Shown piece after piece: positions 5,134 to 38,775 of a DNA stretch of 38,775 bases; positions within the stretch are counted from its first letter, which is position 1, and every line of letters begins with the position of its first letter. The DNA lies in the IMG/VR virus record IMGVR_UViG_3300034001_000024, positions 1 through 38,775 of that record; one strand, 5' to 3'. The position numbers and the translations under genes were made by a program. This DNA is from a virus. Taxonomy: Duplodnaviria; Caudoviricetes. Under the pieces are notes generated by a model. It did no database searches and was not told the DNA's origin. It worked only from the letters and a program-made list of their open reading frames with translations.

Positions 5134-5176
5134 TGCAAGAAGGCAGCGCAGAGGTCTGTTTGCAAGAATCCTTGCA
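5134..5176. promoter_or_regulatory. TGCAAG-N4-CTTGCA palindrome (5161-5176) plus half-site TGCAAGAA (5134-5141); candidate regulator site
   Basis: Seen directly in the intergenic region between the peptide and TPR-HTH genes. Confidence 0.45.
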
Positions 5177-5201
5177 TAAAACAGCGAAAGGTGACTTTGC
5201 A

Positions 5202-6692
5202 TTGAATTTAACAGCCTTACATCAACAGTTGAGTAACCCGGAACTGAGCCTTGATGAGCGTGTCCGCATCCGATGCCAGATCGCAGGCGAGCTTGAGCAC
5301 CGGGGGCAGTGCGAGGCAGCATGTGATGCGCTCGCCGACCTGTGGCAAGGGATCAGCGCAAGGCCATCTCTAGAGGGTTTAACAGAACTCACGGCGGCAG
5401 AAGTCCTATTACACATCGGAACTCTATCAAGCTGGTTTGCGAGTGTCCACCAGTTAGCCGACGAACAGGACGAGGCCAAAGACCTCATCAGCGAAAGCAT
5501 AGGTATCTTCCAGTCGCTCGGAGAAATGACCAAGGCAGCAGCCGCGCAGAGCGATCTTGCCTTCTGCTACTGGCGGGAAGGCGCGCTGGACGAAGCTCGC
5601 CTCATTTATCTCGAAGCACTTACCGGACTCCCTGAAGAAGCAATCGAACTGCGAACGCGCATCGCCATCCGTAGGTCGATGGTCGAGATCTCGGCGGGCA
5701 GGTACAACGACGCGAGACAGATCCTCGGAGAGATAAACGCAGATCGGATAGAAAGCGATGCGGTGCGCGGCAGGTATCACAACCAGCTCGGCGTCGTGCT
5801 CATGCAACTCAGCGCAGCAGAGGGGCGGCGGGACTATATTGACCAAGCAATTATCGAATATACCGCCGCGAGCCACTACTTCGAGCAGGCCGAGCACGCA
5901 AGCTACCGTGCGAGGGCGGAGAACAATATCGGTTATCTCCTCTACAAACTGGGCCGGTACGCGGAAGCCCATGAGCACCTTGATTATGCGCGCCGAACAT
6001 TCGTCGGTCTCAGAGACAGGGGCAGCGTCGCTCAGGTAGACGAAACCCGCTCCCGGCTCCTCCTCGCCGAAGGGCGAGAGCATGAAGCCATCGAAGTCAT
6101 CAGGAGCGCGGTACGGGCGCTTGAGAAGGGGCGGGAACGCGCTCAGCTCGCGGAAGCACTGACGACGAGGGGCGTGATCGAGGCGCGGATCGCAGACGCC
6201 CGTACCTCCCAGGCGACGCTCTACCGCGCCATCAACATCGCGGAGCGCGCAGGATCGACGGAAGATGCCGGGAAAGCCGTGCTCGCATTGATTGAGGAAC
6301 ACGCCGAGCGGCTGTCGGCAAAGGAGCTATTCAAGCTCTACGAACGCGCCGACGAACTGCTTGCAAAGAGCCAGGATGCGGAGACCATCTCAAGGCTCCG
6401 AGCGTGCGCCCGGCGGGTAATTAGCATGACCCGCGAGTACGCTGAGGAGAAACAAGAATTCGTAAAGAGCTGGCAGGACTTTTCCCTCACGAACGCAGTG
6501 CTTGACTACGAGGCAAGCGTGATCCGCCAGGCGCTCAGGGACGCCCAGGGCAGAGTCACCCGCGCGGCTCACCTTCTCGGCATCACGCATCAGGGCCTCG
6601 CGTACATCCTCGAAGGAAGGCAGAAGAAGCTGCTAGACGAACGGATACCGGCGCATCCGAGACGTGCGAGCATCTTCAAGCGCAAGCGCTAG
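5202..6692 (+). CDS. TPR-repeat protein with C-terminal Fis-type (HTH_8) DNA-binding domain; putative peptide-sensing regulator
   Basis: Multiple TPR-like repeats (e.g. ARAENNIGYLLYKLGRYAEAHEHLDYA) and terminal YEASVIRQALRDAQGRVTRAAHLLGITHQGL; no AAA+ domain. Start TTG 5202 (AAAGGTGA upstream) preferred over 5160. Confidence 0.85.
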   Translation: MNLTALHQQLSNPELSLDERVRIRCQIAGELEHRGQCEAACDALADLWQGISARPSLEGLTELTAAEVLLHIGTLSSWFASVHQLADEQDEAKDLISESIGIFQSLGEMTKAAAAQSDLAFCYWREGALDEARLIYLEALTGLPEEAIELRTRIAIRRSMVEISAGRYNDARQILGEINADRIESDAVRGRYHNQLGVVLMQLSAAEGRRDYIDQAIIEYTAASHYFEQAEHASYRARAENNIGYLLYKLGRYAEAHEHLDYARRTFVGLRDRGSVAQVDETRSRLLLAEGREHEAIEVIRSAVRALEKGRERAQLAEALTTRGVIEARIADARTSQATLYRAINIAERAGSTEDAGKAVLALIEEHAERLSAKELFKLYERADELLAKSQDAETISRLRACARRVISMTREYAEEKQEFVKSWQDFSLTNAVLDYEASVIRQALRDAQGRVTRAAHLLGITHQGLAYILEGRQKKLLDERIPAHPRRASIFKRKR

Positions 6693-24935: not shown

Positions 24936-26825
24936 TTACATCAGCGCTTTGAGCACGACGCTATATGTCCAACTGCCCGCTCCGTTATGCAGGACTCGGA
25001 AGTAAAGTCGGTCGCTGATCGGCATGTTGTAATGCTTGATGTGCGTCGCATCATCCTGCACGACCGTATCAATGCCCGGATAAATCACCAGATCAAATAG
25101 GGCGCGTGATGCGTAAGCTCCATCCGGGATGGTCTGCGAGGCGAATGGTAGAGGCGGCTGCCCGGCACCCTGGTCCCTGCCCATGACCTCCAGCGTCAGC
25201 GTGCTGCCGTTGTTCGGCCCGGCGGTCACAGCTATCTGCAGTCGAATGCCACGAGCACCGGGCGTATCCATCGACATCACTGATGGCGTGGTCGTCCTAG
25301 CAGCTGAGGCCAGCAGAGTAGCTAGGACACCATTTACGTTAACGGCGCGCCAACTGTCGCCGATCCCATCATGTCCAGCTATCGCCGCGACTGTCATCAG
25401 TCCCCTGGTCGAGCCGCTGATCAGCCCAGCCACGCCGATGCTGAGGTTGTTGGTTACGGCCGGCTCTTGACCAGATGAGTTCAGCAATACCGCCGGGTGT
25501 CGGTTAGAGTTGAGCGCTGCCAGTCCGCCGTTGAGGAGCGTGCGGATGCGCTTTAAGAGCGCGATCACTGTGCCGTTACCGGCAGCGGCCTCCGCATCCG
25601 TTGTAGTGCCGATAGTGACAGCCGCGCCATCAGCAATCGTCACTGCGCCGCCACCTCCGCCGCCTCCCACCGTCTGAACGACGTCCACCTTGAGAGCCTT
25701 CGCACCACCGACATCCGAGATGCCAACATCTGAGACTCCATCAGTAATGCGAGACTTTTGCGATCCGTCTGTTAGGGCTGTGATGATGGCGTCAATGCGC
25801 GTGCGGACGCGCTTAGCGATAGCGATGAGCGAGCCGTTGCCAGCCGCTTCTGCATCAGTCGTCGCGCCCAGCGCCACGCTGCCGCCATCAACCGTCGTGA
25901 TGGCTTGGCTGGCAGGGAAGTTTTGAATGTGCGCCTTGAGGCCGCCATCCGCATCCAGTGCTGCAGGCAAGCCACCGCCGAGCTTTGTGATCTGGCTATC
26001 GAGCAGGGTGCGAAGACGCTTTAAGAGCGCCACCACCGTGCCGTTGCCAGCAGCCGCCTCTGCATCAGTCGTCGCGCCGAGTGCCGCATCAGAACCATCA
26101 GCCACCGAGACGGCCTGCGTGGCCGGAAAGTTATTCACTCCGACCGTGCCTGAAACTGGCTGCGTAGCGGGCAGGTTATCGACGACGACGCTCTGCTGCG
26201 CGGGGAAGTTCTGCACCGCCACATTCTGTGTTGCGGGCAGATTCTGGACATGCGCTTTAATGCCCCCATCCGCATCCAGTGCGCCGGGCAGGCGGTTAGT
26301 AACGAGCGTGACGATGTCGCCGAGTAACGTGCGCAGGCGTTTCGTGATAGCGATTAAGCTACCGTTGCCGGTCGCTTCCACATCGACGCGCTGGCCCAGT
26401 GCTGCGATAGCGCCGTCAGCCGCCGTGACCGCCTGTTCAGCAGGAATGTTGCCGACATTGACTGTGCCTGAAACCGGCTGCGTAGCAGGAAAGTTCTGCA
26501 CCGCCACGTTCTGCGTGGCCGGCAGGTTCGTGACCTGCGTCTTCTGCGTGCCGTCAGTCAGCGTGGTCAGGATGCTACTGAGCAGCGTACGCAGGCGCTT
26601 GAGCAGCGCGATCACCGTGCCGTTGCCGGCAGCAGCTTCCGCATCGGTGGTAGTGCCCTGCGCCACATCAGCACCGTCTGCGATAGTCGTTGCGCCACCC
26701 CCGCCGCCACCAGCCGATGGATTAACGACATACACGGCCGGCGCTACTGTGCCATCGCCGTTGTCGTGAATCTTCTGCTGCTTCTGCCCGTCGTCGGTGA
26801 AGATTCTCTTTGTTGTGTCCGCCAT
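24936..26825 (-). CDS. Repeat-rich fibre/whisker-like structural protein (629 aa)
   Basis: Five copies of DG..xGxxxDxEA..GNG(T/S)xxAxxKRxRT, NFPATQ/NLPATQ repeats, poly-Gly hinges and a beta-rich C-terminal domain. Confidence 0.65.
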   Translation of the reverse strand: MADTTKRIFTDDGQKQQKIHDNGDGTVAPAVYVVNPSAGGGGGGATTIADGADVAQGTTTDAEAAAGNGTVIALLKRLRTLLSSILTTLTDGTQKTQVTNLPATQNVAVQNFPATQPVSGTVNVGNIPAEQAVTAADGAIAALGQRVDVEATGNGSLIAITKRLRTLLGDIVTLVTNRLPGALDADGGIKAHVQNLPATQNVAVQNFPAQQSVVVDNLPATQPVSGTVGVNNFPATQAVSVADGSDAALGATTDAEAAAGNGTVVALLKRLRTLLDSQITKLGGGLPAALDADGGLKAHIQNFPASQAITTVDGGSVALGATTDAEAAGNGSLIAIAKRVRTRIDAIITALTDGSQKSRITDGVSDVGISDVGGAKALKVDVVQTVGGGGGGGAVTIADGAAVTIGTTTDAEAAAGNGTVIALLKRIRTLLNGGLAALNSNRHPAVLLNSSGQEPAVTNNLSIGVAGLISGSTRGLMTVAAIAGHDGIGDSWRAVNVNGVLATLLASAARTTTPSVMSMDTPGARGIRLQIAVTAGPNNGSTLTLEVMGRDQGAGQPPLPFASQTIPDGAYASRALFDLVIYPGIDTVVQDDATHIKHYNMPISDRLYFRVLHNGAGSWTYSVVLKALM

Positions 26826-30698: not shown

Positions 30699-31085
30699 TC
30701 AGTGGCCGCCGAGCGTCTTTCGAAGCAGCCATTTTACGCGCTCGCGCAGATCGATCAACTCGTACTCGGTATGCATTGTCCGCTGGCCGATATGGCGTAT
30801 GATCACCTGATGCTCTGTTTCCAATAGCCGGCCGATTAACTCGACTTTGTCCGCATCTTCGAGCCATCTGTCGCTCAAGATGCGCTGCTCAGCCTTGCGA
30901 AGCGTCGCGCCCCATCGTTCATCGAGCGTTGCTGGCCTGCCAGCGCGCCTACGCACCTGATCTTCCTCTAAATAGCCCTGTACTCTTATGCGTGTCTGCT
31001 GTAAGGGGCTGGCGCGCAGATATGGCTCAAGTGCAGATATAAATTCATCCCAGTGTGCGTCTCTTTCAGCTTGCGTTAACGCCAT
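30699..31085 (-). CDS. Hypothetical protein
   Basis: AAGGAG RBS before (M)MALTQAER; helical sequence. Confidence 0.6.
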   Translation of the reverse strand: MALTQAERDAHWDEFISALEPYLRASPLQQTRIRVQGYLEEDQVRRRAGRPATLDERWGATLRKAEQRILSDRWLEDADKVELIGRLLETEHQVIIRHIGQRTMHTEYELIDLRERVKWLLRKTLGGH

Positions 31086-31258
31086 CATCAATCTCCTTAC
31101 GGCTGTTGCCGTCACTGAGACGTTGACTCGAATACGCAAACATGTGAAGAGGTTTTTACGATGTCCGACATGCAATCTGCATCCGGAGACTCCTGCAAAG
31201 AGTGATGGCGATGAGGTTTTCCTTATCGCCATCACTCTAGTCTCCGCATGTGGATCTG

Positions 31259-32083
31259 CTACGAGCGGACGTGTTCGGGCTTTCTGCTGTACGCCAGTGC
31301 GCGCCACGTCTCTCGAATCGCATGCTCGACGGCTGTACCAGGAGTCGGAAAGCCTCCTTTATGCATGATGCGCGCGATCAGCGCCATCGCGTCGCGGCTG
31401 ATGGGCACGTTGAGCCACTCCGTATCTTCGCTGGCCGGCACGCTCGACGGCGATGGGCCTGTACCATCAGCAGCCGGTTCGCTCCGCTCTGTTGTCAACT
31501 CGCCAGCCAGTATGGCGCGACGGTCGTTCATAAACTCTTGCAGGGATACTGCACCTTGCTCGATGGCGCGCTTCTCTGCGATGCGAATGGCCGCATGCGG
31601 TTCCGGATCCTTGGCTGCTGCCAGATATACGGATCGCGGCACACCAGGGGTCGGCGCGGGGAATGTGGATCTGAGATCCACATTCTCTTCGGACGCCACT
31701 GATGGGTAGAACGTCCGGACGATCAGCGCATCGTCGCGCAGGGTGCGCGGGTCGACACCCGTCTCGCGTCCCAACTCCTTGATCTCCGCTGTCCGGCTAC
31801 GCCCACCACCATATGACCGCTTGCCGTCGCGCTCTTCGCGCTCAGCGACGCGGCGCTCAGCTTCGCAGACACATGCGCCACGCAGTATGTATGCGTGCTC
31901 CCTAGCATCCGTAGCCATTTTGATGGTTTGCTGCAACTCTTCATCTGAGAGTTCGCGCAGGCGCGCCGTCAATTCACGGCAGCCGGCCGTCGAGTACCAC
32001 AGCAGACCGTGTAGCTGCTGCGTGCTCATCTCGGAAATGGCTGGCGGCGCGGCCTCATGTTTTTCGATTGCTACTGAACTCAT
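31259..32083 (-). CDS. Putative DNA-binding protein (central HTH, C-terminal RHH-like segment)
   Basis: IKELGRETGVDPRTLRDD (HTH-like) and WLNVPISRDAMALI...AVEHAIRE (RHH-like). Confidence 0.6.
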   Translation of the reverse strand: MSSVAIEKHEAAPPAISEMSTQQLHGLLWYSTAGCRELTARLRELSDEELQQTIKMATDAREHAYILRGACVCEAERRVAEREERDGKRSYGGGRSRTAEIKELGRETGVDPRTLRDDALIVRTFYPSVASEENVDLRSTFPAPTPGVPRSVYLAAAKDPEPHAAIRIAEKRAIEQGAVSLQEFMNDRRAILAGELTTERSEPAADGTGPSPSSVPASEDTEWLNVPISRDAMALIARIMHKGGFPTPGTAVEHAIRETWRALAYSRKPEHVRS

Positions 32084-32088
32084 GAAAA

Positions 32089-32502
32089 CTATTGCTCTCC
32101 TTCGATAGTGATGATGGCTTCCTTCAGATAGTAATAATGCCCGCCATCTAAAGTCCGGCAGGGCACTTTGCGGCAGCCCACCTTGTCGCTTTCCATCAGC
32201 CGCCAGATGGATTCGCTGAGGATGTCGTCATCGTTATCCGATGCGTCGTCCATGATGTTACCGAGCCGGTCGAGACCGACTTCCGCCCCGATCTGTGTCC
32301 AGCCGTGATTGCCAGCCCGTATCGCAGCCAGCACGGCCGCGTCCATCTCTTCATCAGTACGGCTGCGCGCCGAAACGCGCACCTCTGCCTCATGCGCGCG
32401 TTGTGCCCGCTCCTGGGCGGCACGCGCTACATAATTTTCCTGATGGAGTGAATTGATGAATGAATCGGGGAGTGAAGGTTGCGAGGGGAACTGTGTATCC
32501 AT
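32089..32502 (-). CDS. Hypothetical protein, possible winged helix
   Basis: VLAAIRAG..WTQIGAEVGL...SESIWRL pattern. Confidence 0.55.
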   Translation of the reverse strand: MDTQFPSQPSLPDSFINSLHQENYVARAAQERAQRAHEAEVRVSARSRTDEEMDAAVLAAIRAGNHGWTQIGAEVGLDRLGNIMDDASDNDDDILSESIWRLMESDKVGCRKVPCRTLDGGHYYYLKEAIITIEGEQ

Positions 32503-32631
32503 GATGTTTTGTGCTTCCCTTTGCTCGTTCGTAACGCCCGGCTCTTACGCCGGGCGGGGTCTATTACGATCGTCGAACCATGCGGCGATCAACACTGTTG
32601 CTGCAAAAACGATGGCTATCGGTAATGCCAT

Positions 32632-32727
32632 ACTTCAATGGGGCCTCATCTTTAAGGATGAGGTGCTCGTTTACGATGATTGTCCAAGCTTCGCTTCAAT
32701 GGAGCCTCGTCTTCGGACGAGGTCGAC
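32632..32727 (-). CRISPR. CRISPR-like mini-array: two type I-G-like repeats and one 24-nt spacer, no cas genes
   Basis: Minus strand GTCGA-CCTCGTC-CGAA-GACGAGG-CTCC-ATTGAAGC (32727-32693), spacer GAAGCTTGGACAATCATCGTAAAC, then GAGCA-CCTCATC-CTTAAA-GATGAGG-CCCC-ATTGAAGT (32668-32632). Confidence 0.65.
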
Positions 32728-32890
32728 GCATGATGCGTTTCGTTTGCAGCAGGGGATGCCGCTGAGACCATGGAGCACTATGTGCGCGACAGAGTCAACA
32801 CCCGATGCAAACTTTTGTCGTCCGATGCGAGCGAAGCGCCAGCAGTGTTACGACTGCTGGCGCTCGCGGTGTTGCTGATGTGGATGCACA

Positions 32891-34507
32891 TTAGAAAGCA
32901 ATGGCCTCCTCCGGCCACTCCTCTGCTTCCGGCAGTTCGATACCTGCCCGACGTTCCCATCCCATCTCGCGCGCAACGCACTCGCGCTCCGCCAGCTGGA
33001 CGAGCCGCTTCGAGGGCACGTTGAATACCATCCGGCACTCAACCACCTGCCCGCTCTCGCGCGACTTCAGCACGCGGAAGACAGTGTCCGTCTCGGCCAG
33101 TTCGCCCTCGCGCTTCTTATGCGGGACGCGCCAGACCTGAATCAGGTTGTGCGCCCAGTTCGTGATTTTCTTCGAGCCTTCGACATCATCCTTCTCTGGC
33201 ATGTGGCCGAAGTCCGCCTGCTTTTTGTTGTGCGCGATCAGGTGGATGTGGATGCCGAACTTGGCTGCGAAGTTTTTGCAGCTTTGCACGAACGCGCCCT
33301 GCGCCGCGTAGTAGCCGAACTCATCCACGCCCGATGTGAACGCCATCAGGTTATCGACGATCGCGGCCTTGATGCCGTATCTGCGGACGGCGATCTCCAG
33401 CAGCTCGAAGAAAACCTCTGGCGTCATATACTCCTCGTCGAGGATGAAAAACTGCCCGCGATACCAGTCGCGGATGTGCGCGATCATCTCAGGCTTGACG
33501 ATGAAGTACTCCAGGCCGGTCTTAGTGGCCGTGCGCGATTCGAGGTACAGCGGGCCGGCGGCCACCAGCTCGAACCAGCGCCGCAGTGCTTTGATCTTCT
33601 GCTCGCCGCTCCAGAAGAGCGTCGGCACGCGCTCGGCCACGTTGGCGCACGTGACATTCAACAGTGCCGTGCTCTTGCCAGCGAAGTTGTCGCCGCCCCA
33701 CACTGTGATCTCGCCGTCCCTGAATCCGCCGATGGTCGAGTCGATGTCTCCCCATGCGGTCGGCGTGCCTTCCGGCAGCGCATCCGGCTCCTCCCAGTCG
33801 GCCACATCAACGATCTGCGAGCCGGCGTACCACTTCGCCTGCTGGACGGCTTCACGTACGGCGTCTGCGCCCGTACGCCGCATGAGATCGTTGGCATCTT
33901 TGTCGTCGACACGGACGATCTTCACCCGCGCCTTGCCGAGACGCACGGCCATCTCGTCCTGCTTTTTCCACGCGCGCTCGGCCGCCTCCGCATCTCGATG
34001 ATCGTCCGCGTCCGGCCAGATGATGATCTCCCTGAACTGTTCGAGCCAGTCGAACTGATTCTCGATGAACTGATGCGCGGAGTCGCCGAAGGGCAGGGAC
34101 GTCGCATTCGGCACGCCCGCCTGCGCCACCGACATCGCGTCGTAGTGGCCGGCGCAGATTACGAGCGGGCCTTCGGCCGGATCGCACAGATGCGATCCGA
34201 AGAGGACATGGCGACCACCTGGCTCCGCGAACGTCTTGGTCTCCTTATCCTTGATTCGTATCAGCCCGCCGTCCGGCGCGCGGAACGTGGTCAGGACGTG
34301 TTCGTCCGCTTCGTCGTAGTGGGGCAGCGCGATCTTGCCGCCCTCAGTGCAGCCGAGTCTGTATGCGTTGATGGTGTCGTGGCGCAGGCCACGCGCGCTC
34401 TGCAGGTAGTCCAGCGCCTGCGGAGTCGGTGCCACGATTTTCGTCTGCGGTTTCACGAAAGAGCGCTCCCCGCCAGCGCTCACGATGCTTCTGCTCTTGT
34501 CGCTCAT
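32891..34507 (-). CDS. Toprim plus SF4 helicase (T7 gp4 / Twinkle-like primase-helicase without its Zn domain)
   Basis: YLQSARG, LFG, GHYDAMS, WPDAD and KDAND; Walker A GGDNFAGKST, IVDNL, HLIAH and GSKKI. Confidence 0.9.
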   Translation of the reverse strand: MSDKSRSIVSAGGERSFVKPQTKIVAPTPQALDYLQSARGLRHDTINAYRLGCTEGGKIALPHYDEADEHVLTTFRAPDGGLIRIKDKETKTFAEPGGRHVLFGSHLCDPAEGPLVICAGHYDAMSVAQAGVPNATSLPFGDSAHQFIENQFDWLEQFREIIIWPDADDHRDAEAAERAWKKQDEMAVRLGKARVKIVRVDDKDANDLMRRTGADAVREAVQQAKWYAGSQIVDVADWEEPDALPEGTPTAWGDIDSTIGGFRDGEITVWGGDNFAGKSTALLNVTCANVAERVPTLFWSGEQKIKALRRWFELVAAGPLYLESRTATKTGLEYFIVKPEMIAHIRDWYRGQFFILDEEYMTPEVFFELLEIAVRRYGIKAAIVDNLMAFTSGVDEFGYYAAQGAFVQSCKNFAAKFGIHIHLIAHNKKQADFGHMPEKDDVEGSKKITNWAHNLIQVWRVPHKKREGELAETDTVFRVLKSRESGQVVECRMVFNVPSKRLVQLAERECVAREMGWERRAGIELPEAEEWPEEAIAF

Positions 34508-36716: not shown

Positions 36717-36760
36717 AAAAAACAGAAAGCCACCTGGAGTTAATTCACCAGGTGGCTTTC
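36717..36760 (-). terminator. Intrinsic terminator after the first early ORF
   Basis: 13-bp stem GAAAGCCACCTGG/CCAGGTGGCTTTC followed by TGTTTTTT on the minus strand. Confidence 0.7.
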
Positions 36761-36931
36761 CTGTAGCTGATCGGTTGTAACGGCCTTCTGGCCGCGATTC
36801 TCGCCCGTGAACGCGCGCATGAGACTTGCCGCGACTAGCGCCTTCACTTCGGCGCTGGCGGGCTGCATGCGCTGGCGTTCAGCTACATTCTCTTGTTGAT
36901 AATCCTGCCCAAAAAGTAATTGAGGTTGCAT
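36740..36931 (-). CDS. First ORF of the leftward early operon (63 aa, hypothetical)
   Basis: ORF downstream of the leftward promoter; start codon lies inside a long hairpin. Confidence 0.45.
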   Translation of the reverse strand: MQPQLLFGQDYQQENVAERQRMQPASAEVKALVAASLMRAFTGENRGQKAVTTDQLQESHLVN

Positions 36932-37090
36932 ACGTCACCCTGCAGGCTATGCCTGCGTCGGTGGATGCAACCTCATCCGGTTTCAGGGGCGGCAGATTGT
37001 ACAGCGCGTCCTCTCGGAACTTAACAGGCGCTTGCGCGCCGCGCGGATGGCCCACTCCCCTGTCGAATTGTGCGCCGCTCACAGCGGCTA

Positions 37091-37124
37091 CTACATATGT
37101 AGCGAATGCTCGCGTAGGTGTCAA
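37091..37124 (-). promoter_or_regulatory. Leftward early promoter TTGACA-17-TACATA overlapped by palindrome CTACATATGTAG
   Basis: -35 at 37124-37119; perfect 12-bp palindrome at 37091-37102. Confidence 0.55.
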
Positions 37125-37150
37125 TACCCCTCGCAAACTATTTTTCGATT

Positions 37151-37203
37151 TTTGTCTAGTTTCTTTTCGCTTTACGAAAATAGCTCGCGCGGTTTGTCTA
37201 GTT
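37151..37203. repeat. Direct repeat TTTGTCTAGTT x2, 42 bp apart
   Basis: Copies at 37151-37161 and 37193-37203; core TTGTCTAG equals the int/xis inverted-repeat arm. Confidence 0.6.
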
Positions 37204-37223
37204 GTGGTGTAGTAAGCGGAGGG

Positions 37224-37232
37224 TGATATAAT
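37224..37232 (+). promoter_or_regulatory. Extended -10 promoter TGnTATAAT for the GHKL-nuclease gene
   Basis: TGATATAAT at 37224-37232, 58 nt before the ATG. Confidence 0.65.
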
Positions 37233-37290
37233 TTCGAGCACCATGTCCTGGGGCAAAACGTCTTCCGAATCTTATATCAGGTGAGAATCT

Positions 37291-38775
37291 ATGATTAATG
37301 TTAGCAACCTAAAAACTGCAGCATCTACAGTAAGAGTAGCTCCCTCCGATAATATATTCACAGAGTTAGGTAAGAATACTTACGATTACAAAGATTTACT
37401 GTCAGAACTCATCGACAACTCCATCGCTGCTTCGGGGAATTCTAGGCCAGTCAGAGTCGTTATTGATGTATACGTCGATGTAAGCAATAGACCTGTCGAG
37501 TTCGTAATCAGAGACAATGCAAGTGGAATCCCTCCAGAAAAATTAGGCATAGCAATCACACCTGCTGGCATCAGATCCATAAACTCATTAAATGAGCACG
37601 GACTGGGCATGAAACAAGCTATTTCGGCCCTCGGAACTTTGAAGTATCTTGCTACTAAAACAGCTAGTGAGCCTAATGCCAGAGTAGTCCTTAAGTTTCA
37701 ATTCGGAGAAATACCAATCTATGAATCTGATTTTGATTCTGAATCGGGTACAGAAATTGCGATAACCAACCTTAGTCCCATCGTCACAGCTAATCCCACC
37801 TCGATCACTAGATCACTATCAAAGTATCTGGGCGCTCGATATAGACGATTCTTGAAGCCTGACAATAAGTCTTTAGATTTAACAATAAATCTAAGGAAGC
37901 AGTTTAATGGACAGATAACGAATTATTGGGAAGTAAAGGAAGCGAAGCCCTACTATTTTCATCCATACACGAGAACTAATAAGCCTGTTATCCTAAAGCA
38001 CCCGCTCTCTGGAGATGGATGGAAGGCTGAATTGACTTTCGGTTACGCTCCTCAAGAGAGCGAGTATGCTGAAATGGGTATTGATCCTCCCACTAAATTT
38101 GATCCGTACTATGTATCGCTCAACCGTCAAGGGCTCGATGTCATTCTCCACAATCGGGTGATCCTCTTTCACCAACTTAATGAGTTGGGCTTTGTTCCAA
38201 TAAGACACTCCGATTACAACAGTGTACGCGGCGAGATTGATCTTATAGAAGGCTTCTCAACAGCTATCACTAAAAATTCTATTATTTACGATAACAACTT
38301 TCGAGATTGCATTGATGAAATTGCGAGCATCCTGAAAGGCGAGAAAGCCGGGCCTGACGGTCAGAAAAAGAACTACCTCTTGCTCAAGACATACCCTGAT
38401 CAAATTCCTGAGAAACTTCTTAGAGATAGATTGGCTGCTTGGCTTCAAAGCAATCCGTTGAACCAGAGGAGTGATGTTAAGACAGAGTTCGTCGTTCAGG
38501 GTATAGAAGGCTACATTGACATACTTGCAGATGGCGAAGCTTGGGAGCTTAAAACTGATCAGGCAAACGCCCTCGATGTGTACCAATTGTTCATGTACAT
38601 GGATGTTGGTAAATTCGATAAGGGGTACTTAGTTGCCAAAGGTTTCACTACCGGAGCTGAAACGGCTGCCGATTACATCAACGAGAAACATGGGAAAGTA
38701 ATTAAACTTTCTAAGATCGATCAATTTCCAATTGGACATCAGCCTTCTGGTACTGAAAGAGAAGAATATTACTAA
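37291..38775 (+). CDS. GHKL (HATPase_c/MORC-like) ATPase fused to a C-terminal PD-(D/E)XK nuclease; candidate defence protein
   Basis: ELIDNS, DNASGI, HGLGMK and GT GHKL boxes; C-terminal GYIDIL...WELK...YQLFMY; AT-rich relative to the phage core. Confidence 0.82.
   Translation: MINVSNLKTAASTVRVAPSDNIFTELGKNTYDYKDLLSELIDNSIAASGNSRPVRVVIDVYVDVSNRPVEFVIRDNASGIPPEKLGIAITPAGIRSINSLNEHGLGMKQAISALGTLKYLATKTASEPNARVVLKFQFGEIPIYESDFDSESGTEIAITNLSPIVTANPTSITRSLSKYLGARYRRFLKPDNKSLDLTINLRKQFNGQITNYWEVKEAKPYYFHPYTRTNKPVILKHPLSGDGWKAELTFGYAPQESEYAEMGIDPPTKFDPYYVSLNRQGLDVILHNRVILFHQLNELGFVPIRHSDYNSVRGEIDLIEGFSTAITKNSIIYDNNFRDCIDEIASILKGEKAGPDGQKKNYLLLKTYPDQIPEKLLRDRLAAWLQSNPLNQRSDVKTEFVVQGIEGYIDILADGEAWELKTDQANALDVYQLFMYMDVGKFDKGYLVAKGFTTGAETAADYINEKHGKVIKLSKIDQFPIGHQPSGTEREEYY

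Follow-up and report, generated by a model that had tools for sequence, protein, structure and literature searches.

We found that the minus strand of a 38.8-kb virus record carries, at 32727-32632, a mini-array of 96 bases in which two repeats flank one spacer; the window analysed here is the whole stretch of 38,775 nucleotides, and the coordinates of the features are collected in Table 1. This mini-array is a real feature with type I-G-like repeats. We tentatively read it as an RNA anti-CRISPR, possible rather than probable, which would occupy Cas subunits of the host and would probably silence a cas or toxin promoter. The layout given in the original prediction, with two diverged repeats of a 7-bp stem, a loop, 4 nt and ATTGAAG(C/T) around a 24-nt spacer, was confirmed on re-inspection, and the compensatory change that it described between the two stems (C-G/T-A) is present. 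The 5-nt leader that the repeats were said to share was refuted: the host leader is the 4-nt [GA]TTT, which neither phage copy keeps, so that the spacer length is 24 or 25 nt.

Table 1. Positions and properties of the features; positions are those of the window unless a contig is named.
Feature	Position	Strand	Description
Repeat 1, type I-G-like	32693..32727	-	35 nt; 7-bp stem, 4-nt loop, CTCC link, ATTGAAGC handle
Spacer	32669..32692	-	24 nt; 25 nt if repeat 2 takes a host-type 4-nt leader
Repeat 2, more diverged	32632..32668	-	37 nt; 7-bp stem, 6-nt loop, CCCC link, ATTGAAGT handle
Tail 3' of repeat 2	32600..32631	-	Weak hairpin and short T run
Long hairpin, without U-tract	32827..32867	-	Directly after the primase-helicase stop codon
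DNA primase/helicase	32891..34507	-	PHROG 239, E 3e-73; upstream neighbour of the mini-array
137-aa ORF	32089..32502	-	Downstream neighbour of the mini-array; no PHROG or Pfam match
TPR + Fis-HTH cargo gene	5160..6692	+	Used solely as host-family marker
Split-repeat guide units	L094 (G273), L095 (G079), L096 (G107), L097 (G365)		
Split-repeat guide units	L098 (G082), L099 (G066), L298 near 6998 (G197), L300 near 6999 (G236)		

Both phage repeats keep the parts of the host repeats that Csb2 uses (stem, 4-nt link and handle), whereas the leader is lost and the loops are changed. All 14 stem pairs of the two repeats are Watson-Crick despite several substitutions, with link length and handle intact in both. 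An A-T pair of the host repeats is replaced by T-A in both phage copies, and this phage-type pair was seen in none of the host arrays viewed. Upon aligning repeat 1 with the repeat of genome G053, we observe 23/26 matching stem, link and handle positions (5' arm 6/7, 3' part 17/19), with two of the mismatches forming one compensated pair; against the G079 repeat the 3' part reaches 18/19. ATTGAAGY has only two sites in the window, both within the phage repeats, and as an 8-mer it stands at chance level (2.2 expected). When the windows were dinucleotide-shuffled, one unit of the repeat architecture arose in 5/1500 cases and two units in 0/1500. Furthermore, a roughly calibrated covariance model, trained on ten Pyrinomonadaceae array repeats with the window's own repeats left out, returned the phage repeats at 25.4 and 25.1 bits (E 2.9e-5 and 3.8e-5), the next match having an E of 0.47. 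The covariance model and the shuffles exclude a chance origin of the repeat pair. Rfam gave no match at the mini-array.

The likely host family has type I-G systems with matching repeats. A loose 3'-end repeat pattern detected arrays in 13/301 Pyrinomonadaceae genomes, the covariance model detected further ones among 160 hand-picked genomes, and Csb2 was present in 7/10 further genomes tested. The host repeats (36 nt) consist of the 4-nt leader, a 7-8-bp stem, a 4-nt link and the handle ATTGAAGC, and their arrays adjoin Cas4g/Cas1g and the I-G effector genes (csb2, cas7g, cas8g, cas3g). In stem (7 bp), link (4 nt) and handle (8 nt) the phage repeats agree with the repeats beside these I-G genes. 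The comparison with host-lineage arrays thus supports the type I-G identity proposed at the outset, and a lineage devoid of I-G systems is not what was found. Host spacers span 34-42 nt (352 distinct) versus 24-25 nt in the phage, at least 10 nt shorter than normal, which bears out the claim of a short spacer. We also observe that in two genomes, G053 (L058) and G065 (L045), a single Cas4g/Cas1g and a single repeat family are common to the I-G and type III modules, with host-type repeats beside type III-A and III-B genes; each genome encodes a full Csb2 and has another match to its C-terminal half.

Csb2 cuts 4 nt 3' of the 7-bp stem, leaving an 8-nt handle, and remains on the 3' hairpin of the crRNA, while the I-G Cascade places seven Cas7 over 42 nt and reads a TTN PAM (10.1101/2022.08.08.503147). 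Since stem, 4-nt link and 8-nt handle are kept in both phage repeats, a guide of 61 nt is predicted: host Csb2 would make two cuts, the one in repeat 1 between 32701 and 32700, releasing an 8-nt handle, the 24-nt spacer and a 29-nt hairpin, in line with the product of about 60 nt foreseen in the original prediction. Repeat 2 would supply the Csb2-bound 3' hairpin, and, if Csb2 cuts repeat 2, the tail behind it would give a second, open-ended guide. From handle to stem the predicted guide measures 29 nt versus a modal 41 in the host, i.e. 12 nt or two Cas7 shorter, although this exact shortening is weak evidence given the wide range of host spacers. Such a guide would be expected to assemble a shortened Cascade with about five Cas7 instead of seven, which would not cleave DNA, would tie up host I-G Cas subunits and so impair immunity, and would probably silence a cas or toxin promoter in the host.

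The phage is temperate, with a likely host among soil Acidobacteria of the family Pyrinomonadaceae. Its record has genes for an integrase, a Dam methylase, an HK97-type head, terminase, portal and endolysin as well as a replication block; almost all of these lie on the minus strand, and no cas gene was recognised among the 53 ORFs scanned (PHROGs, Pfam). The named relatives of the phage primase belong to Pyrinomonadaceae or Acidobacteriota. The TPR-Fis cargo protein has matches at E<=1e-20 in 93/121 Pyrinomonadaceae genomes (best identity ~55-56%), a count run on Pyrinomonadaceae as the only family and on plasmids, 72,556 of which gave no match. The phage's own host genome is not among the 401 family genomes. 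Five metagenome runs labelled biocrust or soil contain the phage wholly or partly, and no RNA run is listed among them; three runs have no listed difference from the window, and one diverged run has zero coverage over the mini-array. A family I-G locus could not be tied to the host through these runs, as their contigs align in short pieces, mostly of 80-90%. Eleven unpublished genomes (G284, G035, G234, G131, G385, G387, G020, G176, G113, G232 and G399) enter as tallies only.

The mini-array lies within a 388-nt gap from the primase-helicase to the 137-aa ORF, on the same strand as both. No recognisable Acr gene adjoins it: a protein search with the 137-aa ORF returned only the ORF itself, with no anti-CRISPR evidence, and its structural leads to winged-helix folds are weak (TM <0.5). 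We found no sigma-70 promoter-like site in 31000-34000 and hence none belonging to the mini-array, so that its expression, if any, would be by read-through from the replication operon, with the primase/helicase transcript as the likely source.

Next, we turn to guides within the host family. A solitary repeat that the covariance model picked out upstream of cas3g in G107 led to split-repeat units, of which eight I-G loci carry one each (Table 1). Each unit has, in this order, a -35/-10 pair, just the 3' repeat half, a spacer of 34-40 nt and the 5' repeat half, the two halves being complementary over 9-13 bp with covarying letters. In all eight loci the first 20 nt of the spacer match a promoter-proximal site at 13-16/17 scored positions, next to a PAM of TTC (7) or TTA (1), a score that shuffled guides reach in 0-1/300. 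These sites do not coincide with the -35 box but begin ~27-45 nt upstream of it, and in G197 the matching site is found immediately upstream of the cas3g promoter. A single Csb2 cut would yield a guide whose 3' stem is made of two strands, and the units appear to follow the logic of CreA/CreR. Six of them precede a 41-aa hydrophobic ORF (L061:8107-8232 and homologs), a candidate for a CRISPR-repressed toxin; its profile has matches in 20/401 family genomes, many outside CRISPR loci, and it has no viral relative and no PHROG. Two further units, in G255 and G041, have no local target. In the same two genomes, L242 (G041) and L274/L306 (G255) carry a diverged I-G repeat with a near-identical spacer, and no cas gene was recognised nearby. 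We did not find the split-repeat design described in literature searches, although supplements beyond them may hold it; creA-like elements for I-U have been mentioned previously (figure S7 of 10.1101/2023.03.10.532045). A circuit open to phage hijack is thus present in the host family, because eight I-G loci carry guide-like RNAs that match promoters, and guide-directed repression by the phage RNA is plausible, since the same arrangement can be read at these eight loci. As host guides vary widely among species, a phage guide of this kind would be host-specific.

Upon searching for targets of the phage spacer, defined as PAM-flanked matches at 17 scored positions, we observed no site above background. 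Across 475 kb of cas-locus DNA, part of it overlapping, the best PAM-flanked match was 11/17 and shuffled spacers reached 11-15; a further 222 kb again gave 11/17. The 401 genomes of the order held three one-mismatch matches versus five for controls. IMG/VR, in which relatives of the phage are scarce, gave 0 exact matches to the spacer pattern, and phage records gave none. Within the window there is no self-target, the best match being 15/24 without a PAM, and 177 host spacers compared with the window gave merely chance matches of 12-17 nt. Reading the guide from +5, or from the tail after repeat 2, likewise produced no match above background. The proposed check of the spacer, with a TTN PAM, against cas loci and other phages therefore returned no PAM-flanked target above shuffles or controls. 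The suggestion that a -35-like TGGACA in the spacer marks a cas promoter target fails as well, given where the host guides match relative to the -35 box.

Several single candidates were rejected. BLAST matches that family genomes gave to the spacer region either lay in coding sequence or lacked a PAM. A PAM-plus-seed pattern had three matches in ten I-G-bearing genomes versus five for controls, and 0/3 in the genus of G107. A two-mismatch pattern had 15 matches in 22 genomes versus six for controls, all in coding regions or at gene ends and none at a cas promoter; one of them, at the end of a cas6 gene, lies within a simple repeat. A site with a TTT PAM at the start codon of a pilus gene following pilO (G484, G406), which would have allowed receptor silencing, is at chance level, with three matches versus five controls overall, and it is absent from 29 orthologous operons.

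The 5' seed of the phage spacer is unlike any of ten host guides, and no match of at least nine PAM-proximal positions to a host guide or a cas/toxin promoter occurs at the sampled loci, the true host being unsampled. Spacer positions 13-24 (32669-32680) agree at 11/12 positions with the first 12 nt of the G236 guide (L300 6980-6991), a resemblance that was noticed post hoc and arises in 5/3000 shuffles; the 12 nt upstream of the G236 promoter site do not match the phage seed. This 11/12 match hints that the phage spacer may derive from a captured host guide.

We also examined other viral contigs for I-G repeat units. No homolog of the mini-array was found beside 17 loci with related primases, in 401 family genomes, or in phage or plasmid collections, and IMG/VR holds 0 exact relatives of the repeats. 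A pattern of two handles at short spacing had two matches, both inside genes and without stems, and was discarded. A 17-letter handle pattern returned 45 viral loci, many of them redundant coding matches, of which 14 have repeat structure. Among viral contigs we observe solitary I-G repeats (L115, L137, L142, L154), arrays of two to four repeats (L126, L131, L144, L148, L150, L156) and split repeats (L125, L128, L129, L139, plus L147 and L124) with arms of 12-18 bp (7 in L124) and no local target. The closed spacers of these viral units are all of normal length or longer, so that the short spacer is so far specific to this phage. The spacer of the mini-array opens by repeating the final 5 nt of the handle (window 32688-32697). 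Such an echo of the handle end (4-6 nt) at the spacer start is seen after viral or prophage I-G repeats in the window, L115, L125, L131 and L241, with near-echoes in L142 and L263, and in only 4/177 host spacers. Owing to the echo, the guides of L241, located after a major capsid gene, and of L125 match their own DNA at a site 4 nt upstream, with TTG taken from the handle; the self-match scores are 15/17 and 13/17, respectively, versus at most 12 for host spacers, a post hoc comparison. The first spacer of the four-repeat array at L126:401-645 is similar to a TTG-flanked site that lies 126 nt upstream in that contig. Finally, L142 near 401 holds a textbook solitary I-G repeat flanked by a promoter-like site and a terminator-like hairpin, a clean Racr candidate.

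Other readings of the mini-array have to be weighed against an RNA anti-CRISPR that both occupies subunits and represses. It is somewhat unlikely that it acts as a pure decoy in the manner of a Racr, with a processed RNA that would soak up Csb2, Cas7 and Cas8g and a spacer whose sequence would be irrelevant. The absence of a target in cas-locus DNA, the 401 genomes and IMG/VR would fit such a decoy, as would the handle-end echo that is shared with L115, L125, L131 and L241 and rare among host spacers, and solitary I-G repeats are among the predicted Racrs (PMC10651486). However, the two full repeats and the intact 5' handle would make a complete guide, whereas RacrIF1 is described as acting by lacking the handle, and the target searches covered loci other than that of the true host. 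A more specific reading, in which a type I-G Cas-repressing phage RNA attacks the undescribed split-repeat circuit of the host, is unlikely. The host transcript would start at the 3' stem arm, which would pair with the 5' arm after the spacer to form a one-cut guide, and this guide would repress its own promoter ahead of the 41-aa toxin candidate, or the cas3 promoter; the two-hairpin phage guide, 12 nt shorter, would then build a smaller Cascade that keeps the promoter shut while draining subunits. Against the main reading, an RNA anti-CRISPR that occupies subunits and represses, stand the lack of a target, homolog, own promoter or recognised neighbouring Acr in the searches above, a 5' seed unlike the host guides, the T-A pair that no sampled host array has, and the occurrence of I-G arrays in a minority of family genomes (13/301 by the first pattern).

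A decaying remnant, either of a viral mini-array or of a captured array piece, which would have lost 12 nt of spacer and be drifting without function, is quite unlikely. The phage repeats do differ from each other and from every sampled host repeat, the leader is lost, and neither a homolog nor a promoter was found, but drift should break pairs and all 14 are intact, as are link and handle. Because viral mini-arrays mostly aim at related viruses (PMC11656645), and because the I-G spacer of L126 resembles a site on its own contig, the phage guide might be directed at a target other than CRISPR, such as the promoter of a rival phage or a host gene, e.g. a receptor operon. Viral mini-arrays retain host-identical repeats and normal spacers, though, and neither IMG/VR nor the window holds a match, nor does the pilus-gene site exceed chance or persist in orthologous operons, which leaves this reading highly doubtful. 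It is extremely improbable that a co-located type III complex uses the RNA or that the hairpins are due to chance or mere mRNA structure: G053 and G065 do place host-type repeats beside III-A and III-B genes, but both also encode Csb2, and chance is excluded by the covariance model and the shuffles.

Compared with known systems, the mini-array resembles Cracr RNAs in being phage-borne, outside any cas locus and on a mobile element, and in having diverged repeats and a short spacer; the validated CracrIE1 has a 24-nt spacer, I-F Cracrs are shorter than the host guides that they mimic, and both guide and titration effects have been demonstrated (10.1101/2024.10.29.618823). A host lineage with crRNA-like regulators is a further likeness, here at the family level only. 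Cracrs are reported for V-A, I-B, I-C, I-E and I-F, the main text of the same paper naming neither I-G, I-U nor Csb2. What defines a Cracr is that it matches a guide or promoter of the host, and as no target was found for the phage spacer, the mini-array cannot be filed as a Cracr. Like Racrs, it mimics a repeat, lies between phage genes and is not accompanied by cas genes, and it differs from them in its two repeats and intact 5' handle (PMC10651486). Racrs are single repeats with no partner within 100 bp, whereas the phage repeats lie 24 nt apart and are too diverged for the 90% identity rule of the Racr search, whose main text contains no I-G case (PMC10651486).

The CreR/CreA units offer another likeness, with two degenerate repeats and a guide that would repress its target without cutting it, and regulatory mini-arrays are reported in 4% of 235 I-G loci (10.1101/2023.03.10.532045, PMC10120712). 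In contrast to these, the mini-array is on a phage, away from cas genes, and its spacer is shortened; the host units have a split repeat, and their spacers remain 34-40 nt long. Viral mini-CRISPR arrays likewise have one spacer, no cas genes and a need for the host Cascade, but their host-identical repeats and normal-length spacers are not seen here, and their related-virus targets had no counterpart in IMG/VR, where relatives of the phage are scarce, or in phage records (PMC11656645). In type I-G the Cas5-Cas6 fusion sits at the 3' end and the 5' handle is largely unbound (10.1101/2022.08.08.503147), so the mechanism of a mimic is not deducible from I-E or I-F. No tested I-G RNA anti-CRISPR was found in our literature searches. 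To our knowledge, no other type I system has been studied less than type I-G. The 96-base unit is easily tested in a reconstituted I-G system and would yield a compact I-G inhibitor or repressor guide, while the host split-repeat guides provide a PAM (TTC/TTA) and natural targets of repression, and suggest how a single-cut guide might be designed.

Additionally, we observe several features elsewhere in the window. The head of the early operon (36740-37290) has no gene recognised as a CI-like repressor. The integrase region (1-1647) lies downstream of the tail genes. A 629-aa ORF (24936-26825) between the lysis and packaging genes has internal diverged repeats and no family assignment. At the right end of the window (37291-38775), on the opposite strand, a GHKL ATPase gene of low GC content (43%) is possibly defence cargo.
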